From Klebsiella phage Miami, in sequence record MT701590.1: a DNA stretch of 64,000 bases; one strand, written 5' to 3'. Position numbers and translations under genes: made by a program. Positions within the stretch are counted from its first letter, which is position 1; each line of letters opens with the position of its first letter. Under the pieces are notes generated by a model. It saw nothing but the letters and a program-made list of their open reading frames with translations. It searched no databases and was not told where the DNA came from. This document shows positions 22,176 to 38,922 of the stretch, in pieces.

Positions 22176-22700
22176 CTCGGTAGTCGTCGAAGAAGTGACT
22201 TTCGTTACAACAGATTTAGTTGCTGCTTTGGCTTTGGTCATTAGGAATTTAGGATCAAAGACATTGACCGTTCCTGAAGCCTGATCGACAATTTGATCAA
22301 TGTTGCCGAGTAGGCCTTTGATGGCAACTTGCGAAGCATAAACCAAATCGTTGGCGTTATCTAAATCCCTCGTAGTCGTAATAAGTTTTAAACGAGTGAG
22401 CTTGTAGCATCTAACATAGTCAGTATTCTGATCCAAGCAATCATTCGCCTTAAGCCATTCATCGAGTACGATGAGTTGACTAATTGGCTCTACCGGATTA
22501 TCAGAAACGAGTTCCTTTGGGACGGTATGGGCGGCTTCTTTCAATTGCTGAAGATTGATTCCCATACTACTGACTTGAGCGGCTTGAGCCTCCACCTGAA
22601 GTTTGGTGTTGGCTTCGCTGACTGTGGTCTTGTGGCTGCACCCCGTCACTAAGATCATCAGCGCCGTAACGGCTAAGCATTTCATTATACGTTTTTTCAC
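22167..22700 (-). CDS. lipoprotein (lipobox LVTGC); outer-membrane spanin candidate
   Basis: N-terminus MKKRIMKCLAVTALMILVTGCS is a lipoprotein signal peptide. Its 5' end lies inside the 3' end of the upstream membrane-protein gene in another reading frame. Confidence 0.45.
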   Translation of the reverse strand: MKKRIMKCLAVTALMILVTGCSHKTTVSEANTKLQVEAQAAQVSSMGINLQQLKEAAHTVPKELVSDNPVEPISQLIVLDEWLKANDCLDQNTDYVRCYKLTRLKLITTTRDLDNANDLVYASQVAIKGLLGNIDQIVDQASGTVNVFDPKFLMTKAKAATKSVVTKVTSSTTTEQK

Positions 22701-22959
22701 GATCTTGACCTCGACGATCTAACATAAGAGCAAGTTGAGCGTTAAGTTTAGTTTGGCTGGCTGTGGAGACCTCGATAGCCTCCCGTAAACTCTTCATTTG
22801 GTCAGTGATTTTTGCCATCTGACCCACGGTTTCTTGATCGACTGTATCCTTAGGGAAAAACCGATTAACCCCAAGAATAATCATGATGACCAATAATAAT
22901 AAAATAACGATCCCATCTTTAACTACACTTCCGACATTATCTTTAGTAATAACCGACAT
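22567..22959 (-). CDS. type II membrane protein with periplasmic coiled coil; inner-membrane spanin candidate
   Basis: N-terminal transmembrane segment IVILLLLVIMIILGV followed by a helical region (ITDQMKSLREAIEVSTASQTKLNAQLALML). Overlaps the lipoprotein gene by 134 nt. Confidence 0.4.
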   Translation of the reverse strand: MSVITKDNVGSVVKDGIVILLLLVIMIILGVNRFFPKDTVDQETVGQMAKITDQMKSLREAIEVSTASQTKLNAQLALMLDRRGQDREKTYNEMLSRYGADDLSDGVQPQDHSQRSQHQTSGGGSSRSSQ

Positions 22960-22970
22960 GACGAATACCT

Positions 22971-24233
22971 CTAAACTAGAGCATGGATTTTGAACACAAA
23001 GCCAGTCACAAGGTCATCGCTAAAGTAACGGTTACGGAAAGCATGATAGAGATCCCCCCCGTTATCGACGCCCGTGAGGCCATTAACGTAATCCGGGGTT
23101 AACCGGATATCGGTACTCCACAGCATTTGGTTACCGCCTCTTTTAGAAATATAAGAGGGGAACAGGCCGTTGCTCAACATAAGAGGATGAGCGTAGGTGT
23201 CGTTAACCAAGAAGACTGTAGGGTAGCGATAGGTGATCAGTGGGGTTATCGTAATCCCGAAGTCTGGATTATCAAACACCACAAAGAAACTATTTTGATT
23301 TAAAAGAAGCGCTTTAAACGTTTCCGCAGTATAAAGCTTATCTTTAGCAATGACTTTACGTTCCTTAGGATAAAGGTTACTTAAGTCAACGTAATTAAGA
23401 GATTCGAAAATTCGCTCGGGCCATTTATAATGACGGTAGTCGATACGTAGTCTTTTCTCACCCGTTCTTGTAACCAGGGGAGAACCTGTGACTAATCTTC
23501 CAGCGATAACTAACCAAACCTTCTTATCTTTGATAGGAACGTCTAGTTCGACTTCTAAACCAGTGAATCCATCTTCGTCAATGAACTTTATCATGTCTTC
23601 GGTAAATGGACGTGTCTCTAAAGCAGACACTTTGGAGAAGTCATAGATATCAACGTGACTACTATCATTAATGCGGTAATTCTTCCCACCGTTTAAAAGA
23701 TAGATCCCGTCGTCTCTACTTATTCCTCTAATGAAATGCCCGTTGAGATTAAAAAGACATTTCGTGATAAGGTCGTCATATTTGCGCGTTGTTACGATAG
23801 TAGTTAGTAACAGATCCGGGGCTTCACTAACACTAACCAGCGCTTGACGGTCAGCAGACAACAGATGATTAGCAGGAGCGATACGATAGCCGCTTAATTG
23901 AGCGTCACCACGTTGAACATAAACCAACTTCTCTCCCGGGAGTTCCGAAGAGAGAGTAAGCGGATCATTCTCTTTTGTCAACAGCCAGGCTTCAATGGTC
24001 CCATCGAAAGTTTGAAACTCATATTGATAATCGAAGGCGTTTAAACAAAGCTGTTTACCCACTAGTTCGTCGAGAATAACTATTCGTAATTTACTGTAGG
24101 TTTTAAAGTACTGGTTGGTCTTTAAAGTGCTTAAATCTACAACGGCTTCTCCAGCGTGCCCTGTGAGAGCAACACCTACGGCTCGTACATACTGATAAGA
24201 CATAGCGCCCTCTTCCGGAATTCTATGGTTCAT
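22971..24233 (-). CDS. hypothetical baseplate or fiber-adaptor protein (420 aa)
   Basis: Divergent from the tail-fiber cluster. No motif recognised. Confidence 0.4.
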   Translation of the reverse strand: MNHRIPEEGAMSYQYVRAVGVALTGHAGEAVVDLSTLKTNQYFKTYSKLRIVILDELVGKQLCLNAFDYQYEFQTFDGTIEAWLLTKENDPLTLSSELPGEKLVYVQRGDAQLSGYRIAPANHLLSADRQALVSVSEAPDLLLTTIVTTRKYDDLITKCLFNLNGHFIRGISRDDGIYLLNGGKNYRINDSSHVDIYDFSKVSALETRPFTEDMIKFIDEDGFTGLEVELDVPIKDKKVWLVIAGRLVTGSPLVTRTGEKRLRIDYRHYKWPERIFESLNYVDLSNLYPKERKVIAKDKLYTAETFKALLLNQNSFFVVFDNPDFGITITPLITYRYPTVFLVNDTYAHPLMLSNGLFPSYISKRGGNQMLWSTDIRLTPDYVNGLTGVDNGGDLYHAFRNRYFSDDLVTGFVFKIHALV

Positions 24234-24304
24234 TATTTAAATTCATTCATAGGATCGGGCCGCTTAGCGTGGCGAGGTCTTCTAACCGCCAAACAGGATT
24301 CGAT

Positions 24305-27076
24305 ATGTCAGAATATTTATATCCTTGGAATCCCTTCCAAGATGATGATGACGCCCGTATCACTGGAGAGCTCGCGAGTGTACCCGGGGGAACCCGTGTG
24401 CTGGTCGTTCCTAGAGCCGCTCCTTTCTTTTCCGAAAACTTAACTATTGTCAATTCGGATACTAATGCCCCGTTGGTATTAGGTGAAGACTACGTCTTCA
24501 GTTATCCGTTTATGGATTTTATCAAGAATTATTCCAAAAACGTTTATGGTGGGATAATTCTTCTCAAAGCAACCACTGCTTTGAACATTTCAATAAGTTA
24601 TGACACCATCGGCGGGCCGTTCGTTTTAGATGACGTTGCGTACGCTGAAGCTGTGGCCAATATCATCTCATCCGGGAGATTGGCAGATTGGAGTCAGGTC
24701 GTTAATCTCCCTTCTGGTTTCCCAGCCGATCCCCACGACCATCCAGAAAGTCAGACTTATAACTACAACGAGTTCATGGCTAACCTCACTCTGATGATTG
24801 AGGCGATGAACAATGAAACGAATAACCCAACTGTCCAGACACAGCTGACACAGCACAGTGCCGATAACTTAAGAATCGCGCATCCCAACGGCGAGCCAGA
24901 GGATGTGGGATTAAGCAATCTTCACGATTACCCGGTGGCTCAAGAAAGTGATTTCGACGGTAATTCCAACCAGTTATATATGGTTCTTGGTATTACGAAG
25001 AAACTCATCGATAAAATGTTAGCCGAGTTCTTGAACGGATCGTTACCCGCTGACTTCGAAGAAACGGTTCAAGAAATCTACGATCAAATGAACTCTTACC
25101 TGCAGCAAACGGCTACGCTCGCTGGGCAAGTTGATAACAAGCTGTCGAACACCATCAACGGTTTGGAAACCTTCGATAATGGCGCGACACTGAAGTCAAC
25201 CAAGGATATGTTATTCCATACCCCAACTAACAGCTGGTACTATTGGGGTGGGACTTATCCTACTGGCGGTTACGTTGTCAGCGGCGGGGCTTCCCCTTAC
25301 GATGCTTCAGGTAATCTGATAGCCGGTTGGAAAGTGGCTGGTGCAGTTGAGCTTGAAACCAGACTCTCTTCGAAAACCATCGGCCTGGGTGGGGATATCG
25401 TAGGTTACACGGCAGTGGCTGGAGCAATAGCCCGTACTGTGAATGACCGACTCCGGGATACGATTAGTGTAAGGGACTATTATCAAAGTAGTGATAATGG
25501 TAACTGGGCCTTGGCTTATAACCGAGCTAAAGCGGTCAACCCTAAAGTTTGGTTCCCGAGATCCGATTCTGCGTACATCGTTACTTCAACGTTGGCTCTG
25601 TCCGCTGGAGGTGGGATATACTCAAACGGCGCAACTATAAGCTCTCCTCCTGCGGCTGACGCCACGGGTACAGCACTGATAAAGGTTATTTCGGCGACAA
25701 GTGTTTCCGACATCGAGCTAAGTGGGATAACTATCGATGGTGGGGTTAACGAAACACTGACGTCTAAAAACTACACTCGGCCTGTTCAGATGACCGGATG
25801 CACCAATATTCGGTTTAGGAACGTCAGGATCGTAAACAATCCGGATTGGAGTTTTTCACTAGAATCGTGTAAACAGATCATTATTGACAATTACTATCAA
25901 CGTTCTTTCGTCTATGCCAACAGTGCGACGACTACATCGTTAGCTGGCGGTCGAGACGGCGGTCACCTGATGGACTGTGTCGACGCAACATTAACGAATC
26001 TGGATATCGAGTCTGGTGACGATTGCATTGGGATCACATCTAAACTTTCCGGCTGTGCCAACATCACAGTGAGAGGGCTTAAAGGAAGCTCGGTTATCGC
26101 CAGCCTCCTCATTTATAACGAAGAACAGGACGCTTCACTGAATTATTATTCGCAACCTTGTTCTCGTTTAAAATTCTCCGAGATCCATGTAAAAGATGGA
26201 GCTAACTGTCGCAACATCGTTCGAGTTAAGAAATACGGTTCTACTTCTGTCATTAACGATGTCTCAATAACGGGAGTGAGTGGGAAAGCCAATAACAGCT
26301 ACGGTGTATGGGTGGGTGGTGTTAATAACGTTTACCTCAACGATATTAACGTCGAATCAACCCAGGTTCATGGGGCGTATATTGAGAACTGTTCAAGAGT
26401 GAGAGGCAACGTAAAAGCGAAAGCCAATGTTTCCACTTACCACGGCGTTATCGTATACAACTCCAACAACTGTGACCTGATACTGGATTCCGATCAATCA
26501 GCCGGGTATGGTATCTATCTCGATACTGTGAGCTATTCCGTCATCAAACCGTATTCCTATAACTGCGGGGCTGGTTTGTTCTCTACCTCGGCAGGTGGCG
26601 GATGTAGGATGGTGAACTGTACCAACGTGAACATGCCGGAAGGTAATCTCTACGGTACAACCACAGTATCCTATTATGGTTTGAACTACTCCACTGGCAA
26701 CACCGGATGTACGTTTGGTCTGGATCTGATGTTCTACGGCCTGGTTCCGTCTACCCGTCTCCCTACGGCGTATTACCTTAAAACCCCAGCGGTCAGTCTT
26801 AAGTTTAAGGAAGATTCTGCGGGAACGTTGTCGGTTTATTCCAACATCGGGTGTACGTTAACCAGAAACGCGGCGGGTAACTACACGGTTGCTTTTTCAA
26901 GTAACATGAACTCAACTGGGTTCCAATGGGTTCTAGAAGCCTATCACAACGGCGCACGTAGGACGGTTCAATTGTCCTCAGCGGTGACTGTCGGTGGATT
27001 TAGTTTCTTAACTCAGGACGCAGCGGGAACAACGACTTACGCCGATCACGTCAGTCTGGTCGCCTGGAACACTTAA
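24305..27076 (+). CDS. tail fiber or tailspike protein 1, with a right-handed beta-helix region
   Basis: AGGA Shine-Dalgarno before ATG 24305. The longer frame starts at 24269 and lacks a Shine-Dalgarno. N-terminal VVPRAAPFF domain shared with the next two fibers. GLSNLHDYP collar-like motif. Mid-region Asn/Gly/Ser/Thr-rich repeats (DCIGITSKLSGCANITVRG...) typical of a beta-helix. Confidence 0.7.
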   Translation: MSEYLYPWNPFQDDDDARITGELASVPGGTRVLVVPRAAPFFSENLTIVNSDTNAPLVLGEDYVFSYPFMDFIKNYSKNVYGGIILLKATTALNISISYDTIGGPFVLDDVAYAEAVANIISSGRLADWSQVVNLPSGFPADPHDHPESQTYNYNEFMANLTLMIEAMNNETNNPTVQTQLTQHSADNLRIAHPNGEPEDVGLSNLHDYPVAQESDFDGNSNQLYMVLGITKKLIDKMLAEFLNGSLPADFEETVQEIYDQMNSYLQQTATLAGQVDNKLSNTINGLETFDNGATLKSTKDMLFHTPTNSWYYWGGTYPTGGYVVSGGASPYDASGNLIAGWKVAGAVELETRLSSKTIGLGGDIVGYTAVAGAIARTVNDRLRDTISVRDYYQSSDNGNWALAYNRAKAVNPKVWFPRSDSAYIVTSTLALSAGGGIYSNGATISSPPAADATGTALIKVISATSVSDIELSGITIDGGVNETLTSKNYTRPVQMTGCTNIRFRNVRIVNNPDWSFSLESCKQIIIDNYYQRSFVYANSATTTSLAGGRDGGHLMDCVDATLTNLDIESGDDCIGITSKLSGCANITVRGLKGSSVIASLLIYNEEQDASLNYYSQPCSRLKFSEIHVKDGANCRNIVRVKKYGSTSVINDVSITGVSGKANNSYGVWVGGVNNVYLNDINVESTQVHGAYIENCSRVRGNVKAKANVSTYHGVIVYNSNNCDLILDSDQSAGYGIYLDTVSYSVIKPYSYNCGAGLFSTSAGGGCRMVNCTNVNMPEGNLYGTTTVSYYGLNYSTGNTGCTFGLDLMFYGLVPSTRLPTAYYLKTPAVSLKFKEDSAGTLSVYSNIGCTLTRNAAGNYTVAFSSNMNSTGFQWVLEAYHNGARRTVQLSSAVTVGGFSFLTQDAAGTTTYADHVSLVAWNT

Positions 27077-27085
27077 GGAAAAAAT

Positions 27086-27340
27086 ATGCCTGTTACAGCA
27101 GTACTTGCCGCCACTGTTAATCTCACTACTCTGAAAGATAAGAGTTTGGAAAATGAGGTTCTCCAAACCATTAAAGAAAGAATGGCTTACGAGAAACCAG
27201 ACATTGAACTGACCTTATCTAAAGATGACAGTGTTGTTAACAGTTACACCTTTGTTAGTGGCGACGCTCTAACCGTTTCCGATGATTTCAGTTTTGTTTT
27301 TAACGGGATCGTCGCGGACGTAATCAGCAACGTTAACTGA
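27086..27340 (+). CDS. small protein (84 aa); possible fiber assembly factor
   Basis: AAGGAAAAAAT Shine-Dalgarno. Lies between fiber genes. Terminator follows. Confidence 0.4.
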   Translation: MPVTAVLAATVNLTTLKDKSLENEVLQTIKERMAYEKPDIELTLSKDDSVVNSYTFVSGDALTVSDDFSFVFNGIVADVISNVN

Positions 27341-27351
27341 GTAACCTAATA

Positions 27352-27395
27352 AGGTAGGGGAGGGCGTCAGCCCTCCCCTACCTAGTCGATTTTAT
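27352..27395 (+). terminator. intrinsic terminator-like hairpin
   Basis: Stem aggtaggggagggc / gccctcccctacct with loop gtca. Weak T-stretch. Confidence 0.5.
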
Positions 27396-27451
27396 GATTC
27401 AGGCTTAATATTCGTGGAGTGTGATACTCACTCCATCACGAGGTGAGATCA

Positions 27452-30400
27452 ATGAACTATCCTAATATTCCCGAATACCGTTTGGATATCACGGGGAAGA
27501 ACCCAGAAAACTTGATTCCTTTCGAGCATCTTCAAAGGGAAGATAATGATCGAAAAATGATCGTCGTCCCACGTCACGCTCCCTTCTTTATCGACAGCGT
27601 GATTTTGAGCTTCCCTGACGGCACCCCAATGGTTTACGGAACCCATTATGAATTCTTCAACATCATGGGTGAGCTTTCCAGAAGAACCGGTAAGGCGGTC
27701 GGTTGTTTTATTCGCATTTTGGATAAAACCATAACTCGGTTTAACGCCCGCTATCAAACAGTAGGTTCGGTATCTCTCTTTGATAAGAGTTTCCTGGATC
27801 TCTATAATACCGTCATAGACGATGAGCGAGCTGTTTGGTTCGACGATATCGCCAACAAGCCTATATTGTTTGATCCAGAGCAGCATGGTCATGACGTCAG
27901 GTACGGAGTATACGCATTTAAAGACCTTGCAGATGCTTTCGAGCAGATGGTCGCTAACACCGTAGGTGGGGAAGGTTATCACGCCCCGTACGAAGAATTC
28001 TTTGTTCAGCGTATCAACAACGCCATTAGTTACCTTTCACAAGTACAGAGTCGTTGCATCGCACTCATTAACGAACACGCCAGTAACAAGATCAACGTGC
28101 ATGGGATCGATAATGTTAAAGTGGGATTGGGTAACGTTGATAACATCGGGACTTATACTTCCGATAATTGGGGAGATCCTATCGATGATAAACATCGCAT
28201 AACCCCAGGGTATCTGAAAAAGTTAGCTGAAAACACCACTGTGGATCTCAGTAACTTGGTCCAACCCGGAGTTCTCCCAATTGCACGCTACGGTGAAAAC
28301 TTTTACATCCCTCCGGTCATCGATGGATCTTTTAAAGGTGTCGGGACCCGTCAACCTTGGCGAGTGGCCTGTTTAGAAAGAAACGGTTATTTAGTAGCAA
28401 TAGGTAATTACAAGGATGTCAATACGGACGTTTTGATGTACATGTATAACAAAACCCCGTTTGTTTCCCCGGCCAATTCTGCTAACTGGATAAATACACG
28501 TTACGAATATAAACCCACTCGTGCCGTTGAAGATGACGTTAAACTCACCACAGTTATTAAAGGCGGTGATTACCGTTGGATGATCGTAGGTAACGACCAA
28601 ACCAACAAGTGGTATGTAGTTAACTGCAATTCCACATTCAATCCGGTTAGTCACGTTCTCACGCCAATCAGCAATGTGGACTTTTTCTCCAACATTAGTC
28701 ATATCAGAATGTCCGTTTGCGGAGAGAGTATTTATCTGTTCAAGATCACGGATACTCAAGCTGATGGACGTAAATATGTGACGATGAGGAAGATCGACGT
28801 AAGCTCTGTTGATGTTAACACAGAGAGTGTCGCTCTGACCACACCTTCTCTTATTTACACCGATTCATCTAACGCCAGTAAAACATCCACCACCGGCGTT
28901 TTCGATCCTTTCGTTGTTACCAAAGACGGGTCTAATAAAGTCACTAAAGTGTTGGGTAGCTTTAACCCAGTACTGGACTATATTGAAATGGAAAGGGATA
29001 TTCATATTGAAATGATTCCTGATCCAACTAACCCCACAGTAAGTTATATGCGTTGGTGGACCCCCTGTATGCATCATCTGGGGACTAAGGCAGTAACGAC
29101 GACTTACTCCCCGTCCTGGAAATTGCAGGAGAGTGGTGGGTTTACAACGATGACGTGGACAAAAGGACTGGGGTCCGCTACGATGAACATCACTGCGTGG
29201 GATTTAAATTACGCGCCGTGGATGGGTAATCAAAATACAGCGAATACCGACTTCTTCAAGCAAACCTCATCGTGGTTCCACTCACCGGCAATGGGTAACG
29301 GGTTTACTGGTTCGTCTTCAATACTGTCCAATGATGCAAGATTCTCATGCGCGTCGACTCACTGGAACTTCTTCCCGTTATTGACAGCAACGAGCATGTC
29401 GGACTTCTTTACGTCTAGTGACCCTTCCACATTTACGACTGCCGATCCGGCAATAACAAATATGGATGTTAATGAAGCCGGTGGTTATAACCTGAGAACT
29501 TTACAGTGTGGTATTACCAATACCACCGTGTACGGGTCAGCTCCCGCTTCCAGTTGCCACTCTACTTTACCCTTTACTGAGGCGAATAACTCGATAACAC
29601 ATTATGAACTTATTAAGTCAGAAGTTAATGACGATACCTTTGTTCATACGGCTAAATTGAGAACGGGTGATAGAACAACGGCTTCTGTATACGACGCCAA
29701 CACTTATTACCATATGAGTTACACCAACGACATTTATAAAACCAACATCCCTCCAAGGGGTGTACGTGTTTCTTACGTTGATGAAATGAATACGACTAAT
29801 AAGGGAGAGACGTTCTTCTCAGTGACTGGCGGGACGGTTTATAGTCTTGGTACCGGGCTTCAGGATAATCTGTTAACTCACTCTTTCACTACGACCAGAG
29901 ATTCTTCTACCAGGACGTTGTCGTTTAATCCATCTCTGTATGTTCAAATTACTAATGCTTTGGTTTTGTCTTTAGTAACAGCGAACTTCCCAAATGCAGC
30001 GGCTTACTATCAGAAAGCTTGGACTTTGTTATGGGTGCCAGGGAAAGAGAGTATTATAGCTCCTATGCTGATCGTAGAGTGGATGGGTACGGGTTCTGAT
30101 ACTAATGCTTATATCGGCGTGATGACGTTAAACGTGGTTAAAAACCCAACGCTGGCTGCTAACCAAACTACGACTGTGAATGGTGTAAAAACCTGCGTAA
30201 TGAATGTAGGTGATTTGACAGTAGTCAACAAATATACTGTGACGAACGGAACCTATTCTGGTGATCGTTCTTGGTTTGATGCGATTGGTAACCACTACAT
30301 CAACTCAGGATATTTTACTGTTTATCGCAATGCGTCTGGCGAAGTCTCTTTCTATTGGGGTTCTACCAATTCTAAGAACTACGGAAGCGCGACCAGTTAT

Positions 30401-31066
30401 GGTGTTGCTAAAACGGCGTACCTGTCTGGTAAAATGTCGTCAGCAACCGTCATTTCCGCTATTAACAATTACCCTGGCGGAAGAGATATGTTGGGGTCTG
30501 TCGTCTATGCATTAAAAGGCGTCGGTCTATTACTGATTTCCGATACGATGGCTACCGATATCTTTGTGGGTGGCGGCATTACTCCGGCTAAGCTGGCGGG
30601 TAGTACCTACCAGTCAGTTCTGGATGGATATGCTAACACAGCGCTGTTAGGATCGTTCTACATCGTTGCCGACATCATCCCGGTCAATCAATGGACGTTG
30701 TTCTTCTCAGCGAGTAAGATCGTTTTGAAAGGAACCTATTTCGAACTCCCCGTTGGTACTCTGACATTAACAGATTACTTCACCAATGTTCAAAATAAAA
30801 CGTTCTACTTGTTTTTAAAACTCACTGAAGGTAGTCCTGTGTATGAACTGTCATCAACCATGTTGTCGGAAACTTCGACATGTATGTTGATAGCGACGGT
30901 TACTACTGACGCCTTAAGCATTGTTTCTGTAGATACACAAAAGGTCTTTTCAATGACCGGCTATCGCGTGTCGTCTCAAGCTATCGGTTCGATCATACCT
31001 GGGTCGACCGGGGGGATCAACGAATTGGGCGAGACACCGTGGCTGTCGTCTACCTTGGTTGATTAA
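27452..31066 (+). CDS. tail fiber protein 2 (about 1204 aa)
   Basis: AGGTGA Shine-Dalgarno before ATG 27452. N-terminal VVPRHAPFF domain. GLGNVDNIGTYTSDNWGDPIDDKHRITPGYLKKL collar motif. Ser/Thr/Asn-rich distal region. Confidence 0.7.
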   Translation: MNYPNIPEYRLDITGKNPENLIPFEHLQREDNDRKMIVVPRHAPFFIDSVILSFPDGTPMVYGTHYEFFNIMGELSRRTGKAVGCFIRILDKTITRFNARYQTVGSVSLFDKSFLDLYNTVIDDERAVWFDDIANKPILFDPEQHGHDVRYGVYAFKDLADAFEQMVANTVGGEGYHAPYEEFFVQRINNAISYLSQVQSRCIALINEHASNKINVHGIDNVKVGLGNVDNIGTYTSDNWGDPIDDKHRITPGYLKKLAENTTVDLSNLVQPGVLPIARYGENFYIPPVIDGSFKGVGTRQPWRVACLERNGYLVAIGNYKDVNTDVLMYMYNKTPFVSPANSANWINTRYEYKPTRAVEDDVKLTTVIKGGDYRWMIVGNDQTNKWYVVNCNSTFNPVSHVLTPISNVDFFSNISHIRMSVCGESIYLFKITDTQADGRKYVTMRKIDVSSVDVNTESVALTTPSLIYTDSSNASKTSTTGVFDPFVVTKDGSNKVTKVLGSFNPVLDYIEMERDIHIEMIPDPTNPTVSYMRWWTPCMHHLGTKAVTTTYSPSWKLQESGGFTTMTWTKGLGSATMNITAWDLNYAPWMGNQNTANTDFFKQTSSWFHSPAMGNGFTGSSSILSNDARFSCASTHWNFFPLLTATSMSDFFTSSDPSTFTTADPAITNMDVNEAGGYNLRTLQCGITNTTVYGSAPASSCHSTLPFTEANNSITHYELIKSEVNDDTFVHTAKLRTGDRTTASVYDANTYYHMSYTNDIYKTNIPPRGVRVSYVDEMNTTNKGETFFSVTGGTVYSLGTGLQDNLLTHSFTTTRDSSTRTLSFNPSLYVQITNALVLSLVTANFPNAAAYYQKAWTLLWVPGKESIIAPMLIVEWMGTGSDTNAYIGVMTLNVVKNPTLAANQTTTVNGVKTCVMNVGDLTVVNKYTVTNGTYSGDRSWFDAIGNHYINSGYFTVYRNASGEVSFYWGSTNSKNYGSATSYGVAKTAYLSGKMSSATVISAINNYPGGRDMLGSVVYALKGVGLLLISDTMATDIFVGGGITPAKLAGSTYQSVLDGYANTALLGSFYIVADIIPVNQWTLFFSASKIVLKGTYFELPVGTLTLTDYFTNVQNKTFYLFLKLTEGSPVYELSSTMLSETSTCMLIATVTTDALSIVSVDTQKVFSMTGYRVSSQAIGSIIPGSTGGINELGETPWLSSTLVD

Positions 31067-31072
31067 CCCTTT

Positions 31073-31105
31073 AAAAGGAGGGAGTTTCCCTCCTTTTATT
31101 TTCAT
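31073..31105 (+). terminator. intrinsic terminator
   Basis: Stem aaaaggaggga / tccctcctttt with loop gttt, followed by tattttc. Confidence 0.55.
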
Positions 31106-31114
31106 AGGTGTAAT

Positions 31115-34100
31115 ATGTCTGACTTTAAAATCCTATCTTTCGATCCCAGAGGGGATAACGCAGATAATCTGTTAACCGAGCAGGTGACGTTGGATGACAC
31201 CACCCTCGATTACATTAAACCGGATTACAGTCCATTTTATTCTAACACTGTGGTTATTACTGATAAAGATGGTCAAGTGAGGAATGAAGGGACAGATTAT
31301 GTTCTGGAAGGTTTAGTCGTCCCACTGGTAAAAACTTCCGGTAAGGATGTAAAGGCTTACATCAGAATCGTCAATACAGAACTCTATGCTAAGTCTCCAC
31401 TGAGCATTCGGTATCATTCTTGCGGGATTAACCACTTTCCGAGAGATATGGTTAAGAACACTCCAACCGGGTCAGAAGGTAACAACCTCCCCGTCGATTG
31501 GAATACGCAAGTTTTAGGCAAGCCCGATTCTTATCCTTTTAAACCGCATATTCATAACGTTGAAACTGAAATAGCGGCGTGGACTGATTTGGCCGATGAA
31601 ATAGAAGAAATTTATCAGTACAGAAAAAATCACATCCTCAGCAAATACCAAGAGTTAAAAGGTCTGAGCGATGCAGTTTGGACTGCGACTGATCTCACCG
31701 CCAAGCAGCTCCGCGATAATGTGATGAATCACGATCGTGATCTCGATAACCCTCATGACGTTGATGCGGCTGACGTTTTACTCGGTAACGTAGACAACTT
31801 TGCTACAGCAACCGCCAATGACGAACTCCTGGGCTCGGCTGATAAGTTCTCTACCCCCCTAGGAGCGCAGTCTATACTTAATAATTCATTACAAAGTACG
31901 GACAGTTATCATCACATTGGTCGTCTTCCCCTTTCTTATTACGGAACTGATTTTTATATCCCCCCTCCGATAGAGGGAGACTTTAAAGGGATGTGGACTA
32001 ACTGTGAAACGGCCGGATTCTGTTTGGAAGATAACGGAACGTTAATGATGCTCGCCAATGCGTCTGACGGAAAGCACAACGGTCTGTTTTACACCACTAT
32101 TGAAAATTGGGATAGCACCAATCCAAAAGTCAGATATACCGGCTATCCTTACCAATGGGGGAATTTGGATTACCGTAAACTCAACGCCATTGTTGAAGGC
32201 TCTGGTAAAGACGTGATGATCGTAGGGAACCGTGTTTCTCAGGATTGGTACATTACTCTGACCAAAGGGACCTTCGACCCAGCGAAACACAATCTGCACA
32301 AAATCTCTTTCGATACCACCCCTCCTGGGATGTGGGACAATTATGTCGTTAACGAAAGATTCCCTTGGTTCGATATCAGCAAGGTTTTTGTTGCAGGGAA
32401 CTATGTTTGGCTGATGTATCTCAACCATCAGTATTTTAGCAATGAGTTGAGGATGGCTAAGGATCTTTATTTTTATCGCATCCCTTTATCAGCCTTTGAT
32501 ACTGACGGTCCGTTGGTATTCCAGGCGGTAACTCTGACAAGCGCGCATAACGTTTTCGGGACATTATTCTCTAACGTTAAACCGCTTAGAATGACGGATC
32601 CTGTTAAGAAGTCCAACGGGTATTATAACAATAGTTGGTGCAGAACTTCCCTGGATCTAACGTCTTCATTCCAGTGGATAAAATCAGTTATTATCCCGAC
32701 AGATTACGATACAACGTCTAACAAGAAGCTGATCTATTTAGAAACTAGAATGCATGACTATTATTATAATGGTTCTGTTTATAGTTTCTATTCTCCGGCC
32801 CTGCAGTTCATTTATATCTTTGATCCTGACAATAATACGTTTTTACTCCATCCTGATAGCGGAAGAAACTACCTAATTGATTTGGGGAATACCTCCAATA
32901 ATCCCCAGAGAGTAGAGGGAAGAATGGGTAATGGGGATGACTGGGTCAACATAGGTAGGAACCAAAGACCTAGTATCTACGCGATGAATGGCTATATTCT
33001 TAAGTCACAAATAAATCAGACTTACACCACCTTTAAATTAAAAACTGATTTACTCAGTTGGTTCAAAGACCCTTATTCGGGAGCAACGGGTGGGACTAAT
33101 GCTCTGACGGTAGTTAAAAAGTCTTATCCGATGGTAGAGCCCCCTGGCGCGGTTCAATCAAGCTATTTCGATGGCGCTGAAATATATGGAGTTTATGGTC
33201 CCCTTCCATCCAGCTCCACCAACGTCGCGACCAAAATGGGTTTATACCTCAGAACCGGATTGGGGGACTACGCCAATCACCCTGAGATGAGATGGGACAA
33301 CACTAATCTCATGATACGTCTGCCCAGCAACCAGGACTTTAAGATAGCGGGTGGTGGAAACTATGCAAGATGCAGTGTGACCGGTGATGCCGCAGCATTA
33401 ACCGCAGCAGGGACAACGATAGGGTGGACTGGATTCAGCGTTTATGAGGATAGGGGTGTTTTCGATAAATTCACCAACTGGCCCGCTCAGCCAAGTAATC
33501 AGGTTGCTTTACCCGGGAACATCACCTGGGATACAAGTGTTCCTGGAGTAGCGACAGCCCAGGTGAATTCTACAGTAAATTACCCAACCACCATTATCAA
33601 CCAGATTAAAGCGGTGTTGACTAATGGTATCGGGGCGACGAAATATTCGTCGTTTACACTTTACGATTTCACCTATTCCCCGTTTGCGGACGTCTATTCG
33701 GTAGCCACCCTTTTCTATACGAAGCCGGGATCTGCTGGACTGTGGACAAGGTTTATTTTGTTTAAACCTACGGTAACAACGTCCGGTACCGTAAAAACTG
33801 TGACCGCTTATTCCGTTCTGTACAACTCCGGTGAAGTGGTTAACGATGGTCCGAGGTTCTTCGCGAACATTGACATGAGCTATTCTAGAGGATTCGACAC
33901 TTATCCCATAGTGGAAGTCTATGTCAATCGAACCACCGGGATCCATTATTACAACATTTATCCGGGCGTTTGTTTCTATCCGGCAGGAAGTACTGGGGCG
34001 TACGCGGTTTCTTATATCGTACAGTCTCGTATACAGCTACAGCGGGCGACATCCAATAACGCGATTACTGTTACCGAAAACACAACAAGACCTACTTGGT

Positions 34101-34627
34101 ATAACGACGAATATTACGTTACCATGATTCCTAAGGTAGGGAGGGTCACTGTTTACGGCATTGATGTGCTAACTGAGATGGCGAATACTGGATCGATCGC
34201 AACAGTAAATGGAACGCGATATGTGACCGCTCACACTTATCCGGCGGATAACTGGTATGTGTATTTTACCAATGCGATTAACGTAACGATAGAAGGCGGC
34301 AGTTATCTCATGCCGACGGGCAGTATATCACTTTACGACATTGTAAGTAATCCCGTTGATAAGACGTTCTACGTTTATATCAGGTTGAACGGAACCAAAG
34401 CGGAATATTTCGTTACTACCAAAAAGCTTTACGTTTCTAGCAAAATGTTGTTTGTTGCAACGATAACGACTAACGATAAAGGGATCAGCAGCATCGATCT
34501 TCTCCAACCGATGATGGTGGGGGATTTGGTTCTCTCTAACGTACGTCGTGGTCAAGCAATTCCTGTTGTGGACGGGTCGCTGGGTCAAGAAGCAACTGTG
34601 GTATGGAAACGCAGCCAAGATAATTAA
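31115..34627 (+). CDS. tail fiber protein 3 (1170 aa)
   Basis: Related N-terminal domain (VVPLVK...). LLGNVDNFATATANDELLGSADKFSTPLGAQSIL collar motif. Similar length and composition to fiber 2. Confidence 0.7.
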   Translation: MSDFKILSFDPRGDNADNLLTEQVTLDDTTLDYIKPDYSPFYSNTVVITDKDGQVRNEGTDYVLEGLVVPLVKTSGKDVKAYIRIVNTELYAKSPLSIRYHSCGINHFPRDMVKNTPTGSEGNNLPVDWNTQVLGKPDSYPFKPHIHNVETEIAAWTDLADEIEEIYQYRKNHILSKYQELKGLSDAVWTATDLTAKQLRDNVMNHDRDLDNPHDVDAADVLLGNVDNFATATANDELLGSADKFSTPLGAQSILNNSLQSTDSYHHIGRLPLSYYGTDFYIPPPIEGDFKGMWTNCETAGFCLEDNGTLMMLANASDGKHNGLFYTTIENWDSTNPKVRYTGYPYQWGNLDYRKLNAIVEGSGKDVMIVGNRVSQDWYITLTKGTFDPAKHNLHKISFDTTPPGMWDNYVVNERFPWFDISKVFVAGNYVWLMYLNHQYFSNELRMAKDLYFYRIPLSAFDTDGPLVFQAVTLTSAHNVFGTLFSNVKPLRMTDPVKKSNGYYNNSWCRTSLDLTSSFQWIKSVIIPTDYDTTSNKKLIYLETRMHDYYYNGSVYSFYSPALQFIYIFDPDNNTFLLHPDSGRNYLIDLGNTSNNPQRVEGRMGNGDDWVNIGRNQRPSIYAMNGYILKSQINQTYTTFKLKTDLLSWFKDPYSGATGGTNALTVVKKSYPMVEPPGAVQSSYFDGAEIYGVYGPLPSSSTNVATKMGLYLRTGLGDYANHPEMRWDNTNLMIRLPSNQDFKIAGGGNYARCSVTGDAAALTAAGTTIGWTGFSVYEDRGVFDKFTNWPAQPSNQVALPGNITWDTSVPGVATAQVNSTVNYPTTIINQIKAVLTNGIGATKYSSFTLYDFTYSPFADVYSVATLFYTKPGSAGLWTRFILFKPTVTTSGTVKTVTAYSVLYNSGEVVNDGPRFFANIDMSYSRGFDTYPIVEVYVNRTTGIHYYNIYPGVCFYPAGSTGAYAVSYIVQSRIQLQRATSNNAITVTENTTRPTWYNDEYYVTMIPKVGRVTVYGIDVLTEMANTGSIATVNGTRYVTAHTYPADNWYVYFTNAINVTIEGGSYLMPTGSISLYDIVSNPVDKTFYVYIRLNGTKAEYFVTTKKLYVSSKMLFVATITTNDKGISSIDLLQPMMVGDLVLSNVRRGQAIPVVDGSLGQEATVVWKRSQDN

Positions 34628-34672
34628 TCGTTTTCACACGGGGGAGTAACCCTCCCCCTAAGAGGTCAGATA

Positions 34673-37600
34673 ATGATCATTTTAGATGAAACCATTCCTC
34701 CTAATGGTCAAGAGGATGAGCGCTTCGGTCTTTTACTTTACGCGTTAACCGACTACGGGATTAAAAGGGAGTTACAACACGTCGCCAGTGTGGCGGTGTT
34801 GACCGATAAAGTTGCCGAAGCGAATGCTAAGATGACATCGGTCAGCTCAGCGGTAAACGATGCTCTTGACGCCCACATTGCGACAAAAGGCCCCATCCAT
34901 GGGGAGACCAAGGAAACGATAGGTCTGGGTCTTGTTGACAATTTACGGACAGCCACGTTAGAAGAACATGTTGACGGTAGCGACGACCTGTTCTGTACTC
35001 CTGCTGGAGTAAAATACGCGGCTCAGTTTTTGGTTGAACCTGATTACACCGGGTTTATTCCACAGACTGTACTCCCTATTGCTTATTTCAAAAGACTGAC
35101 TGGGGATCTGAGCATTAACTCAATCTCTTTCAGTCCATGGACTCAGAGTAATAAGAAAGGTAACCTGTACATCACAGACGGTGCTTATTACGTCAGCTTG
35201 TTAAGTAAGAACGGCGGCGGGGTTAATTACCTGAGTGATCTTTTAACATCAAGGGATTTGATGTACTTCACACCTAGTGGCGGTACGATTGTACCTAAAC
35301 TGGCATACGGCTGGAACGCTAAGACGGGATACCAAACCCTGAGTGATGGTTCGAAACAGCTTACCTTTTTCGATTACACTCATAATGGCACTGGTGGGGA
35401 GTTCGCTCTTAATTTTTCGGGGTCTGTAACAGGCGACTATCTGTCGACCTTATTCGATCCTTTACTCGACACGTCTTCTTTAATAGGCGGGCTACGCTTA
35501 ACTCAGGCTGGATTAAATGTCACACTGACGACCATTACCCAGCCAGATGAGTCGGTCGCAACGCTACTGGTGGACAACACTACCGGTTTCAGTTTTAACG
35601 CCACGGGACCGAAGGGAACGGTTAGAACAGGGACGATTAATAACCTCATTCCTTTAGCCGACTTCATCACGGTAACTGACGCTACGGCGGTTACAATTGA
35701 CCCGACCTACACAGCCATTGACCAAACCCACGGCTATGGGAATATGGAATGGGAGGTTAAAGGGAAATCTGCGATTCTTTACACAGATGCTATCCTGAGG
35801 ACAACATTCCAAGGAGTCGTTAAGAAGATCGTCGCCAGAATAGCGTTAAGGTTGACGATAAGTGGGTCCACTTACACGATCGCTCCCTTATCTCAAGTGA
35901 GTATGGCGACGATAACTGCTGGCGCTGTTGCTGTATCCGGGAACATCCTTTTTGAAGAAGAAATTGATGGCGCTTTACACCCAGTTTACGGAAAAGGTCC
36001 GTTCTTAAGCGAGGGCGGGCACGCTACGTCAATGGCTTCCAACCAAAGCTTCTTCTTAAGGGCATTTACTCACGATCTAACCAGCCTCGTTGACCTGGCT
36101 AAAAACTATCACGAAACCCTTTCTCTCTCTGGAGAGTATACAAAGGAATATCCGGGTAGTTTTGCGGCTCCGATAGGGGTGAACATTAAACGCTTCATAC
36201 CGTTTAATAGTACCGCTTCGGGGTTAAAGGTTTTAACCTATCCGATGGCCAATACCTCAGAAGACTACTACGGGGTATTAAGTTGGGATAGTCCTCAGAT
36301 TCTCCAGTCGTCTAAGAACAAGCCGCTGTATTATCGGTTCAAGCAGGCGAGCTCTTTAACCAACTTTACATTAAGCTCCACCATACCGACCAGGCTGATT
36401 GTTAACTCCGGTGCTGATGGCAGCGTTACTGTGAGGGGGTTGAGTTTCTTACGCAGTGATTATACCGCCGGTACGGGTAAACTGGTCATTACGGAGAATG
36501 AGGTTAAAGCGTCTGAAACTTGGGCGTTGGACGCCGACTCCATTACCACAATGGAATCTATCTTGTCGACGTTCTCCACCAGAAGCCACACAGCGTATAC
36601 TTCTGCTGGGGTGGCGTACGACGCAAGTAAACAGTCAATGAGTTGGTCTGTTGGGATTTTGACGACCTCTGACGACATTACCGCAGTAACAAGATGTGTT
36701 GTGTTATTATCGGATGGTTGCGGTTATGTGGGGTGTCAAATCGTTCCTACGACGCCTAATAGCGGAACAAGAACGTTTACCATCAACAGAGCGTCATTGG
36801 GCACACTGACATCCATGACTTTTGGGATGGCTGCTGTTCCTGATTTTAGTGCGGCCGAATATCTGACACCGCCGGCGTACAACGACATAATGGTATTAAC
36901 TCGTTCCGATAATTCGTTAGAGATCGCATTTAATAACGCGTTTAAAACGAAATACGGGATGGCGTCATTCTTATATTCCGGAACAACGCTGGCACTGGAT
37001 AAAATAGAAAATCCAAGAGTCAGTGTAGGGAATTTCCCCATCATCGGGAAACGTGGGTGTTGCCCTATCAGTATTCCTTACTACGGTATTTTCAGGATGA
37101 CGGATAACGAGGAGGAGTTTTTCAACGCCAACCTCAATCGTTATCTTAACCAGTATGGCGATTTAACGGACGACGTAGTCACTATGGGGGGTTCGGATTA
37201 TCACCTAATCAGAATCCCTGCCGGGACCAAAGTGTTCTTGGATGGTCGAGAATTCCAAATGATCTCCGGTTTAGTCGTCTACGCTCAGGTAGGAGTGACG
37301 TCGTATATTTATCTCACAGCGGCGGCCGATAACGTGATGGCCGAGGCCAGAACCGTAAAATCAGAACCTGCCGTTGATGAAATCATTTACGCAGTAATGG
37401 ATGAAGCAGGGAATCTCGTTATCAACGACACGTACACTGTCATTGATGGGTTCGCGGTATCCTACACTCGTCAGGGTAGTTCTATCCCGTATACTACGGG
37501 TTACCCTATGGATCTTGGCGAAACACTCTTCTTTAAAACAACCTTCGGGGATCCTGATCTTGATGTAATCATGAACTCAACCATGCCAGAGTTTGGCGGG

Positions 37601-37888
37601 ATGGAGTACATGCCTGACCTTGATGAGGAGATCAACGACATTATTCCTTCTTGGGATAATCTCGAAGATCAAGCCATGGACCTCATGATGAACCAGATTC
37701 TCCCAGAGGATATTGGAACATTGGAGGAAAATATCGATGAGTGCATCAACGAAATTCAACCTGAGTACGTCGAAGACTACAGAGATTCCAACGACATCAT
37801 TGTTAACCAATTGATGCCGGAAATCGGTATGTCTCGATTTGTATTGACGGATTATATCGTTAACCAGATCTTACCTGATTCGGAATAA
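34673..37888 (+). CDS. tail fiber protein 4 (1071 aa) with a C-terminal acidic repeat array
   Basis: AAGAGGT Shine-Dalgarno. GLGLVDNLRTATLEEHVDGSDDLFCTPAGVKYAAQF collar motif. The last 110 aa or so carry four or five repeats of (V/M)N(Q/E)(I/L)(L/M/Q)PE. Confidence 0.65.
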   Translation: MIILDETIPPNGQEDERFGLLLYALTDYGIKRELQHVASVAVLTDKVAEANAKMTSVSSAVNDALDAHIATKGPIHGETKETIGLGLVDNLRTATLEEHVDGSDDLFCTPAGVKYAAQFLVEPDYTGFIPQTVLPIAYFKRLTGDLSINSISFSPWTQSNKKGNLYITDGAYYVSLLSKNGGGVNYLSDLLTSRDLMYFTPSGGTIVPKLAYGWNAKTGYQTLSDGSKQLTFFDYTHNGTGGEFALNFSGSVTGDYLSTLFDPLLDTSSLIGGLRLTQAGLNVTLTTITQPDESVATLLVDNTTGFSFNATGPKGTVRTGTINNLIPLADFITVTDATAVTIDPTYTAIDQTHGYGNMEWEVKGKSAILYTDAILRTTFQGVVKKIVARIALRLTISGSTYTIAPLSQVSMATITAGAVAVSGNILFEEEIDGALHPVYGKGPFLSEGGHATSMASNQSFFLRAFTHDLTSLVDLAKNYHETLSLSGEYTKEYPGSFAAPIGVNIKRFIPFNSTASGLKVLTYPMANTSEDYYGVLSWDSPQILQSSKNKPLYYRFKQASSLTNFTLSSTIPTRLIVNSGADGSVTVRGLSFLRSDYTAGTGKLVITENEVKASETWALDADSITTMESILSTFSTRSHTAYTSAGVAYDASKQSMSWSVGILTTSDDITAVTRCVVLLSDGCGYVGCQIVPTTPNSGTRTFTINRASLGTLTSMTFGMAAVPDFSAAEYLTPPAYNDIMVLTRSDNSLEIAFNNAFKTKYGMASFLYSGTTLALDKIENPRVSVGNFPIIGKRGCCPISIPYYGIFRMTDNEEEFFNANLNRYLNQYGDLTDDVVTMGGSDYHLIRIPAGTKVFLDGREFQMISGLVVYAQVGVTSYIYLTAAADNVMAEARTVKSEPAVDEIIYAVMDEAGNLVINDTYTVIDGFAVSYTRQGSSIPYTTGYPMDLGETLFFKTTFGDPDLDVIMNSTMPEFGGMEYMPDLDEEINDIIPSWDNLEDQAMDLMMNQILPEDIGTLEENIDECINEIQPEYVEDYRDSNDIIVNQLMPEIGMSRFVLTDYIVNQILPDSE

Positions 37889-37893
37889 CGTTT

Positions 37894-37937
37894 ATAGCGG
37901 AGAGGGGCTCACGCCCCTCTCCGCTATATTTATTGTT
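37894..37937. terminator. bidirectional intrinsic terminator
   Basis: Stem atagcggagaggggc / gcccctctccgctat with loop tcac, followed by atttattgtt. Lies between convergent genes. Confidence 0.6.
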
Positions 37938-38922
37938 AACCGCCGCCAACCGGCATACCGCCTGTACCGCTGCCACCTGAATTGCTATGACGATGTTTCA
38001 ATAGGGATACTGCTCCGCCCCCTGCTGTTACATCACCTTTCGCATTTATAGATTCTTCTGCGTTAATGCTTCCAGAACATTCCATAGTTCCATCGCCACC
38101 TTCACCCGCAATTGTGGTAATGTTACCCGCCACACCCAAGTTACCGATAACTGACGTGTTAGCCTTTATGTTTACGCCTTCTGGGGCGACGACGTTGACG
38201 TCTTGCGCACTAACTAGCATTTGTTTACAGATTATGCTTAATAGTTTATCGGCACTAATTCCAAATGTGTCCGCGCACTTAATTAAGATGTTCATCTTAG
38301 CCAGTGTAATTTCTGACCCATCCTGATTTCGTACGCTCGTGGTGTGTGACATCGAATCAGTAGCGATAATGTTGCCTTCGCCATCCCCTAGGAGAACAGT
38401 ACCTGCCTGAGCATCTACCTGGAACTGATATTTGGTCTTCTCTCCATTAGCTTGGGATGTCATAAACCCAACCTTACCCGTATGAGTGGAGATCTCAAAC
38501 GTGTAATAGTTATCCAGAGAGAATTCAGCATTCTCGTCTAAATTAGGATTGGCGGAAAATCCCCAAACTACTGTCTCCAATCGTTTAGTCTTCGTATCGA
38601 CCCCATGGAGTGTCCAGAGTAATTGATCCGAATCCCCATACCGATATATGGCGACCGGGGTCCCTTCTCTGACATCCGGAGCCGTCATTCGGTTACCGCC
38701 GTCACCCATCCACTTAGCCGTAACTGAGTTAGATCCCAAAACCTGAGAAGTTTTGTTAGTTCCGTCGGCAGTTTGCGAAGTTTGAACAGAGGTTTGGGCT
38801 GTGGCCACTTCCCTACCGTCAGCCATCATGTTATACGATGGAAGGGAAACGGTAATTTCTTTTGAGTCAGTTTGTTTAGTCGATGTTACCGTTCCGACAC
38901 CTAAACAATTCAGTAAATTCAT
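37936..38922 (-). CDS. baseplate central spike-like protein (gp5/VgrG-like OB-fold N-terminus plus Gly-rich beta-helical C-terminus), putative
   Basis: C-terminal VxGxxxxx-type repeats (GVNIKANTSVIGNLGVAGNITTIAGEGGDG...INAEESINAKGDVTAGGGAV) ending in a Gly/His-rich tip. Lies beside the fiber cluster. Confidence 0.4.
   Translation of the reverse strand: MNLLNCLGVGTVTSTKQTDSKEITVSLPSYNMMADGREVATAQTSVQTSQTADGTNKTSQVLGSNSVTAKWMGDGGNRMTAPDVREGTPVAIYRYGDSDQLLWTLHGVDTKTKRLETVVWGFSANPNLDENAEFSLDNYYTFEISTHTGKVGFMTSQANGEKTKYQFQVDAQAGTVLLGDGEGNIIATDSMSHTTSVRNQDGSEITLAKMNILIKCADTFGISADKLLSIICKQMLVSAQDVNVVAPEGVNIKANTSVIGNLGVAGNITTIAGEGGDGTMECSGSINAEESINAKGDVTAGGGAVSLLKHRHSNSGGSGTGGMPVGGG

Follow-up and report, generated by a model that had tools for sequence, protein, structure and literature searches.

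We analysed a stretch of 64,000 nucleotides from Klebsiella phage Miami (MT701590.1; hereafter the window), in which four large fiber genes, here called F1 to F4, follow one another at positions 24305-37888. The first-pass annotation of this DNA had described four consecutive tail-fiber genes, and this was confirmed: the four open reading frames (ORFs) are co-oriented and encode proteins of 923/935, 1204/1207, 1170 and 1071 amino acids (aa). We consider it quite probable that F1-F4 are peripheral fiber components of a chimallivirus, docking on a homolog of phiKZ gp130, with F1 being a fusion of an anchoring stub to a GH28-type tailspike and with the cores of F1 and F2 setting the host range. 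The genes and features of the module are listed below (positions in the window).

22971-24203, extendable to 24233, minus strand: predicted platform gene of the gp130/EL gp112 type, 410/420 aa, divergent from F1
24269 (GTG) or 24305 (ATG) to 27076, plus strand: F1, 935 or 923 aa
24305-24763, plus strand: F1 predicted N-terminal docking domain (gp131-like), with VPRAAPFF and ending in W..P..FP..PHDH (HxH)
24776-25054, plus strand: F1 helix and collar unit, with GLSNLHD at aa 214
25502-26554, plus strand: F1 variable beta-helix core, aa 400-750 of the 923-aa form; two alleles, 43-45% identity
27086-27340, plus strand: small 84-aa ORF between F1 and F2, at the position of phiKZ gp132
27443 (GTG) or 27452 (ATG) to 31066, plus strand: F2, 1207 or 1204 aa
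28349-30601, plus strand: F2 variable core, aa 300-1050; three alleles, 65-79% identity
31115-34627, plus strand: F3, 1170 aa
31115-31564, plus strand: F3 N-terminal domain
31652-31954, plus strand: F3 helix and collar
about 31994-32854, plus strand: F3 beta-propeller-like region
34247-34624, plus strand: F3 C-terminal domain
34673-37888, plus strand: F4, 1071 aa
34715-35092, plus strand: F4 helix and collar, followed by a middle part of unknown nature
37205-37552, plus strand: F4 C-terminal domain
37553-37885, plus strand: F4 acidic repeats
37936-38922, minus strand: baseplate central spike gene, ortholog of EL gp117, 328 aa, convergent with F4 and closing the module

F1, the 84-aa ORF, F2, F3 and F4 all lie on the plus strand and are separated by intergenic gaps of 9-111 nucleotides. 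The ATG starts of F1 and F2 are favoured by the alignment with EL gp113 and gp114 and by the annotation in four of the five close relatives. In PHROG profile searches, the upstream platform protein matched phrog_3337 (E = 6e-97) and the central spike protein matched phrog_3216, 'baseplate assembly protein' (E = 2e-81). The C-terminus of the latter is glycine-rich and contains an HRH motif, reminiscent of metal-binding spike tips.

The 13.6 kb of DNA at 24269-37888 were 89-95% identical to that of five phages of about 250 kilobases (kb), phiKp_32, KPN8, YC1, 'Stenotrophomonas' phage BUCTxx100 and Raoultella phage VB_ZK_P1, in whose records the module genes are called 'hypothetical', 'minor tail protein' or 'putative tail fiber'. 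Distant protein matches were found in EL, OBP, Joad, RAY, N1M2, Goslar, PCH45 and phiKZ-like phages (Chimalliviridae), and the genes upstream of the module (major head protein, polymerase subunit and large virion structural proteins) are ordered as gp120-gp129 are in phiKZ. By these sequence comparisons, the source is a phiKZ-like (Chimalliviridae) Klebsiella jumbo phage of about 250 kb, whose nearest relatives are KPN8, YC1 and phiKp_32. The annotated Stenotrophomonas host of BUCTxx100 (OR529409.1) looks surprising: the module DNA of this phage is about 90% identical to that of the Klebsiella phages and its F1 allele is the one of KPN8.

The first-pass annotation had also proposed that F1-F3 share an N-terminal domain marked by VPRxAPFF and that all four proteins share a collar motif. 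All these motifs were found in place, VPRAAPFF at aa 48 of F1 and VPRHAPFF at aa 43 of F2, except that the F3 version (KPDYSPFY, aa 36) is degenerate and not a literal VPRxAPFF; the collar motifs are GLSNLHD in F1, GLGNVDN at aa 228 of F2, LLGNVDN at aa 222 of F3 and GLGLVDN at aa 84 of F4. Alignments and profiles both established that the N-terminal domain (N-domain) common to F1-F3 reflects true homology rather than chance likeness. BLASTP aligned F1 with F2 (25% over 144 aa, 46 bits) and residues 145-283 of F2 with residues 9-139 of F4 (39 bits). F2 and F3 aligned in two places, over 410 aa (28%, 124 bits) and over the C-terminal 150 aa (27%, 63 bits), and the C-termini of F2 and F4 likewise matched each other. 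The profile phrog_2163 covered the first ~250 aa of F1 (E = 3e-50), F2 (8e-30) and F3 (7e-29), and also matched the collar region of F4 (E = 3e-9). In the alignment of the ~150-aa N-domain, a P, a PF, a G, a Y and a P as well as the terminal W..KP..FP..HxH were invariant in F1, F2 and F3.

Scanning 1.84 billion cluster representatives with the N-domain (HMMER) yielded 3,349 proteins at E <= 1e-3, 1,723 of them at E <= 1e-10. In the best 150 of the 3,349, the full-length match was N-terminal, beginning no later than about residue 40 in proteins of 150-2056 aa; the N-terminal position on proteins of such different length suggests a conserved anchor with exchangeable distal parts. A phiKp24 protein with the annotation 'YomR' has the domain as well. 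A few other proteins matched the profile only at its end, in the last ~25 positions (W..KP..FP..HxH), up to 23 times each; this segment occurs in 10-23 tandem copies in some very long metagenomic proteins and in two copies in PDB 9d93, 'tail collar fibers gp4'. Judging from these matches, it is a separate HxH fiber repeat.

The collar motif was found to be the core of a unit of ~60 residues (consensus H-x7-NPH-x-VTKAQVGLGNVxNY..AT..EA..G.....YMTP). Each of F1-F4 has one such unit, phiKZ gp132 has it on its own, and Goslar gp25 and gp29 have 3-4 copies. The motif alignment takes in phiKZ gp131, gp132 and gp134. The idea of a collar-specific signature was thus not borne out: the unit is a widespread fiber-shaft repeat, a general shaft element that comes after a presumed bundle helix. 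Structure predictions with AlphaFold2 (AF2) placed helices at residues 155-208 of F3 and 15-71 of F4, with low values of the predicted local distance difference test (pLDDT) in the helices. PDB searches with F2, with F4 and with profiles of the N-domain, the collar and the C-terminal domain gave no significant match; the collar and HxH motifs weakly matched the T4 gp34/gp12 repeats, the SU10 fiber (7z47) and 9d93, at E = 0.004-0.4, as leads only.

A one-to-one counterpart of the module was found in phage EL, with the following matches by BLASTP.

Platform protein and EL gp112: 35% over 410 aa
F1 aa 13-256 and EL gp113 (whole protein, 247 aa): 43% identity
F2 and EL gp114: 30% over 455 aa and, at the C-terminus, 30% over 174 aa
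F3 and EL gp115: 30% over 507 aa and, at the C-terminus, 33% over 165 aa
F4 aa 1-116 and EL gp116 aa 1-117: 37%; F4 aa 436-939 and gp116 aa 442-935: 21%
Central spike protein and EL gp117: 36% over 309 aa

EL gp112-gp117 are one-to-one orthologs of the window proteins, alike in order and orientation and with 21-43% identity. As in the window, EL, N1M2 and Erwinia phage Joad encode a platform protein, a stub, two paralogs of ~1200 aa, a protein of ~950 aa devoid of the N-domain, and a spike; N1M2 gp114-gp118 have the layout of EL, and Goslar has a shuffled version of it. One and the same C-terminal domain ends all three long proteins in EL, again as in the window. In contrast, the first protein of EL and N1M2 is only a stub of 247-254 aa, whereas F1 adds a tailspike of ~670 aa, and EL has neither a small ORF after the stub nor an acidic repeat tail on gp116. 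The long proteins of the EL type are present in the databases, and as far as the searched literature shows they are experimentally uncharacterised.

In phiKZ, gp130-gp135 form a peripheral fiber module according to Sycheva 2012, in the form in which that work is cited by Xiao et al. 2026 (PMC13250141). The gene for gp130 lies on the opposite (minus) strand and is followed by those for gp131 (771 aa), gp132 (110 aa) and gp133-135 (~460 aa each). The window resembles this arrangement in having a platform gene on the opposite strand and then a run of paralogs, the first of which carries an enzyme-like distal domain. The platform protein aligned with phiKZ gp130 (24% over 282 aa) and with its solved chain 9xqd_L, 'PHIKZ130' (E = 1e-16). 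F1-F3 matched the N-terminal ~250 aa of gp131 and gp133-135 by BLASTP, the scores with gp131 being 70 bits for F1 (26% over 249 aa), 51 bits for F2 and 43 bits for F3, and hhalign aligned phiKZ gp133-135 with the F2/F3 family over residues 1-295 at a probability of 99.7%. Orthology, synteny and domain content were thus observed directly, and the window displays the traits of the gp131-like fiber family: the N-domain (in F1-F3, not in F4), the helix followed by NPH..GLGNVxN, and a divergent gp130 gene immediately upstream. The two modules also differ: gp131 has a seven-bladed propeller where F1 has a GH28 beta-helix; gp133-135 all carry the N-domain and lack the C-terminal domain seen in the window proteins, whereas the last paralog of the window is the one without an N-domain; and gp132, made of helix and collar only, has no counterpart in the window.

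The distal part of F1 sets it apart from the stubs of EL and N1M2. A beta-helix, possibly enzymatic, had been suspected in F1 on the first reading, and Pfam bore this out with Glyco_hydro_28 (PF00295, aa 473-603; 35.2 bits, cut-off 22.9) and Tail_spike_N (aa 288-332; 26.5 bits, cut-off 25). F1 also matched the plant polygalacturonases 7b7a and 8ikx in the PDB (E ~1e-3), whose catalytic NTDGIH and GDDC align with RDGGH (aa 562) and GDDC (aa 583) of F1. The distal 570 aa (aa ~365-935) were 42% identical to tail proteins annotated GH28 from Klebsiella and Escherichia phages of ~160 kb, and the distal part was 35% identical to tailspikes of Klebsiella podophages. F1 resembles the GH28-type Klebsiella tailspikes (UPM 2146, KWBSE43-6; podophage K5 ORF40, KMI1/2/4) in identity (35-42%), in the beta-helix of pectin-lyase fold and in the D/DD motifs; those proteins have their own anchors, of T7-like or Ackermannviridae type, whereas F1 sits on a gp131-like anchor. 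Since its stub belongs to a chimallivirus anchor family and its distal part resembles tailspikes of unrelated Klebsiella phages, F1 is a chimera: to judge from its domains, a ~250-aa chimallivirus stub joined to a horizontally acquired Tail_spike_N/GH28-type beta-helix. Its probable role is the hydrolysis of capsule or exopolysaccharide, by which it would take the baseplate through the capsule.

F2 and F3 have another architecture, and phrog_3573 covers both almost end to end (E = 1.5e-81 for F2). In addition to the features described by the first-pass annotation, which mostly stood, we found homology between F2 and F3 over their first 400+ residues, a C-terminal domain common to F2, F3 and F4, and the 84-aa ORF. 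The C-terminal domain is ~130 aa long, with the signature NKTFYLY...ATITT...RG..IP.S.G, and is also present in EL gp114-116, N1M2 gp116/117 and Goslar gp26 and gp28, with matches in GAP32 and CBB. An equivalence with the C-termini of phiKZ gp133-135 was rejected (hhalign probability 0.1%). F2-F4 and this domain had no Pfam match, including none to Peptidase_S74, and the domain had no PDB relative by profile. Only 5, 8 and 5 relatives per protein had been collected for AF2, so that the alignments were shallow; the F3 model reached a pLDDT of 70-88 in blocks at aa 10-110, 295-500, 790-910 and 1070-1130. With this model, Foldseek retrieved only beta-propeller enzymes from the PDB (GH43, GH130, GH117, GH32, sialidase and paraoxonase) and, among viral models (BFVD), proteins of Joad, Aeromonas PS1, CBB, SEGD1 and PhiEaH1, several of them annotated as virion structural proteins. 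Further beta domains lie between the propeller-like region and the C-terminal domain of F3. F2 and F3 would each consist of a stub, an insert that opens with a beta-propeller-like domain, and the conserved C-terminal domain. In metagenomic proteins of 413-430 aa, the C-terminal domain directly follows N-domain, helix and collar, which argues that the ~750-aa middle of F2 and F3 is an insert; this insert would therefore be the adaptive part, probably a glycan-binding one.

By profile comparison, F4 is a paralog of F2 and F3 devoid of the N-domain: hhalign aligned the F4 family with the F2/F3 family collinearly, F4 11-957 with F3 149-1168, at a probability of 99.2%. In OBP, N1M2, AH04, pEt-SU and Aeromonas D6, a start of the F4 type, without the N-domain, occurs ~7.5 kb downstream from the F2-like gene, and an F4-like gene is also found downstream in Joad and Shewanella SXP01. 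Several F4-type proteins have different distal parts, annotated as BspA-like leucine-rich repeats (LRR). F4 ends in six tandem 19-aa acidic repeats (aa 961-1071; 30 D/E against 2 R), whose core [LIVMC][LIVM]N-x-[LIVMT][LIVMQ]-P-[EDS] is strict at aa 966, 1005, 1024, 1043 and 1062, with a degenerate sixth near 985. This tail is 100% conserved in the close relatives and can still be made out in a 45%-identical homolog; EL gp116 has no such tail.

We compared the variation of the module across the window and the five close relatives, six near-identical phages in all. The variable cores of F1 and F2 were combined as follows.

Window: F1 core A, F2 core A
phiKp_32: F1 core A, F2 core A
KPN8: F1 core B, F2 core A
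YC1: F1 core A, F2 core B
VB_ZK_P1: F1 core B, F2 core B
BUCTxx100: F1 core B, F2 core C

All A/B combinations occur, and the two cores thus assort independently. The flanks of the F1 core are conserved (first ~400 aa and last ~170 aa, 91-100% identical), as are the ends of F2 (93-100% for aa 1-299, 92-99% for the C-terminal 154 aa); the conservation of the C-terminus is contrary to the usual variable fiber tip. F3 (91-99%) and F4 (96-99%) are nearly invariant, the platform and spike proteins lie within 91-100%, and the platform gene is 99-100% identical in the five relatives. Because variation is confined to the cores of F1 and F2 and these are exchanged independently, we consider both cores likely host-range determinants, and the conserved termini around them would be assembly surfaces. 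A part of F3 and F4 in the broad or switchable host range proposed on the first reading was not supported, as they hardly change across the six phages, which were isolated on Klebsiella, Raoultella and (as annotated) Stenotrophomonas.

The conservation of F3, F4 and the C-terminal domains could also mean that F2-F4 are mainly structural, as struts or scaffold of the outer baseplate, and that only F1 and the tailspikes of a second cluster (see below) touch the host. The homologs are indeed annotated only as 'virion structural protein', Pfam finds no carbohydrate-binding or adhesin family in F2-F4, and large parts of the peripheral baseplate of phiKZ and Goslar are unassigned. Such a role is very unlikely in our opinion. 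The F2 core occurs in three alleles and ranks second in variability among the segments of the module; like the C-terminal part of phiKZ gp131, the predicted propeller is similar to glycosidases and to propellers of lectin type; and the inserts, which the minimal relatives do without, lie between conserved assembly ends.

The cryo-electron microscopy of phiKZ suggests how F1-F4 may be held. There, the fiber-attachment sites lie in the outer baseplate beneath gp130, where six gp131-like N-domains and a six-helix bundle were seen; the candidate complex is a hetero-hexamer of three gp131 with one gp133, one gp134 and one gp135, a single complex type was fitted at both sites, and there are two fibers per star lobe, twelve per virion, with the C-terminal propeller of gp131 in a distal position (PMC13250141). 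The Goslar preprint describes a very similar baseplate, of which the periphery is not resolved. By homology, the platform protein of the window would be a gp130-type outer-baseplate platform and the N-domain of F1-F3 a gp131-like docking domain, with the long helix before the NPH...GLGNVxN unit of F1-F4 as the candidate bundle helix. The gathering of paralogous N-domains under phiKZ gp130 means that a common N-domain argues for one docking site and not for four fibers or branching. F1-F4 would thus occupy a single type of attachment site, of which phiKZ has 12 per virion, and from the analogy with phiKZ we infer their co-assembly and stoichiometry: an F1 homotrimer with one copy each of F2, F3 and F4, corresponding to three gp131 with gp133, gp134 and gp135.

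Beta-helix tailspikes such as F1 are normally homotrimers, and six N-domains per site would be equally well explained by two of them. F1-F4 could then be four separate homotrimeric fibers or spikes, for instance two homotrimers per hexameric site, acting as independent receptor binders with a broad or switchable host range. The cores of F1 and F2 do vary and assort like independent receptor-binding proteins, and the F4 slot is filled by different distal domains (BspA-type LRR) in phages of Aeromonas, Edwardsiella and probably N1M2. Nevertheless, F4 has no N-domain and so would not dock in the same manner, F3 and F4 scarcely differ between phages with different annotated hosts, and F2-F4 form a collinear triad of paralogs (helix, collar and C-terminal domain) across genera, which predicts a heteromer; moreover, the authors of the phiKZ structure fitted one type of complex at both sites. 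We thus regard four independent homotrimers as unlikely.

Going further than docking, one may suppose that F2, F3 and F4 form an obligate heterotrimer, held together proximally by helix and collar and distally by the C-terminal domain, exposing three different middle domains, and co-anchored with a homotrimeric F1 depolymerase in one hexameric base; the F4 repeats could then recruit spikes. We regard this extension as a possibility but a rather doubtful one. If true, it would amount to a 'two-fibers-in-one-socket' design, in which an enzyme and a secondary-receptor binder are mechanically coupled.

Several points weigh against the docking of F1-F4 on a gp130 homolog as phiKZ-like fiber components, or against its details. 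The phiKZ hetero-hexamer is itself a candidate obtained by rigid-body fitting at about 6 Å (PMC13250141), and a PDB sequence search found no deposited chain of a gp131-like N-domain. Only F1-F3 carry the N-domain in the EL-like clade, so that a 3+1+1+1 complex gives five N-domains and not six. The F3 model is only moderately confident (mean pLDDT 56.8), and its propeller matches have target-normalised template modelling (TM) scores of 0.36-0.42 at 7-12% identity; the F4 model, at a pLDDT of 35.5, was unusable and was not fold-searched. The other F1 allele (KPN8, BUCTxx100, VB_ZK_P1) has RNG/SDDTC, with the first Asp of the GH28 motif missing. Finally, the literature searched contained no virion proteomics or imaging for this phage group, nor any paper on virion structure or host range of KPN8-type phages at the protein level.

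A second receptor-binding cluster at 59-64 kb had been taken, together with F1-F4, as a sign of at least seven receptor-binding proteins in a branched apparatus. This second tailspike-like cluster exists and extends beyond the end of the window, with about eight genes in KPN8. Its members in the window are listed below.

59071-60708: 545-aa protein, with Phage_tail_C_2
60712-62391: 559-aa protein of unknown family, without the adapter described below
62513 (GTG), running past the end of the window: tailspike-like ORF

The KPN8 cluster (72196-93225) comprises eight genes, plus one nearby. Most second-cluster proteins begin with a ~50-aa adapter, TTPT..IPS...D..FN.EK.D..VNSD...YTDR.G..R.T, which is unrelated to the N-domain of F1-F3 and recurs on tailspikes from siphophages of Salmonella, Klebsiella and Escherichia (~46 kb) and in a few Aeromonas jumbo phages. 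The proposed connection of the two clusters was therefore not supported. Fiber and tailspike genes are present as claimed, and the phage probably carries many spikes, the second cluster being a separate system; the independence of F1-F4 and their branching were not supported, since F1-F4 and the platform correspond to the syntenic gp130-gp135 module. No T4gp10-like branching domain was found in F1-F4 by Pfam or PHROGs (F4 was not usefully modelled). The window resembles phiKp24, RaK2, CBA120 and G7C in the many tailspike-like genes of one Klebsiella jumbo phage and in the Tail_spike_N of F1 (TSP1/gp66), but those phages branch via T4gp10-like domains on a primary fiber, whereas the shared N-domain of the window is of the baseplate-docking kind.

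It could still be imagined that the F1-F4 complex is a trunk for the adapter tailspikes of the second cluster, carried for example on the acidic repeats of F4. These repeats are regular, fully conserved in the close relatives and absent from EL, in which the data do not reveal a tailspike array, and the clade has about 7-9 proteins with one common N-terminal adapter. However, the F4 tail is predicted to be disordered, the T4gp10-like docking domain was missing in the Pfam and PHROG searches, and no direct evidence of any kind speaks for a branched system, which we consider extremely improbable. The F4 repeats as a dock for the adapter were weakened as a candidate by the frequency of the adapter in ~46-kb siphophages devoid of an F4-like protein.

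Within the fiber module, the 84-aa ORF is 75-100% conserved and annotated in all five relatives. It had no Pfam or PHROG match and no collar motif, its sequence differences do not follow the F1 allele, and it is absent from EL, whose first protein is without the depolymerase extension. Our guess would be an assembly factor or chaperone of fibers or spikes. Its identification with phiKZ gp132 was rejected, as there was no similarity and no collar motif; it is the N-terminus of F4 that resembles gp132. Long G+C-rich hairpins lie exactly in three intergenic gaps: one at 27352-27383 (stem of 14 base pairs) follows the 84-aa ORF, one at 31072-31098 (12 base pairs) follows F2, and one at 37893-37928 (16 base pairs) separates F4 from the convergent spike gene; none comparable follows F3. 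They may be terminators or RNA-stability elements subdividing the module. A scan for sigma-70 promoters was at chance level (29 found, 29.1 expected); chimalliviruses rely on their own RNA polymerases. Two small overlapping ORFs on the minus strand (22167-22959), between baseplate genes and the gp130 homolog, correspond to i-spanin/o-spanin in the KPN8 annotation, and this arrangement recurs in EL and N1M2. The G+C content reaches 0.53 at 4001-6000, inside the major head protein gene (4181-6367), against ~0.43-0.46 elsewhere.

The paralogous N-domain family, its location in the baseplate and the gene order had already been published for phiKZ. New are the fusion of the stub to a GH28-type domain, the way in which F2 and F3 are built around an insert, the C-terminal domain that F2-F4 have in common, the repeat tail of F4 and the independent exchange of F1 and F2 alleles. 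For annotation, the comparison provides a name and a structural context (phiKZ gp130-gp135) for five genes that are poorly annotated in all public relatives. Knowing that the F1 and F2 cores are exchanged would be of direct use when therapeutic phages are to be chosen or engineered, or a depolymerase cloned. The gp131-like stub accepts unrelated distal domains, namely a propeller, a GH28 beta-helix, collar repeats or LRR. Our results do not overturn the current understanding; they extend the 2026 structural work on phiKZ and Goslar to another clade.

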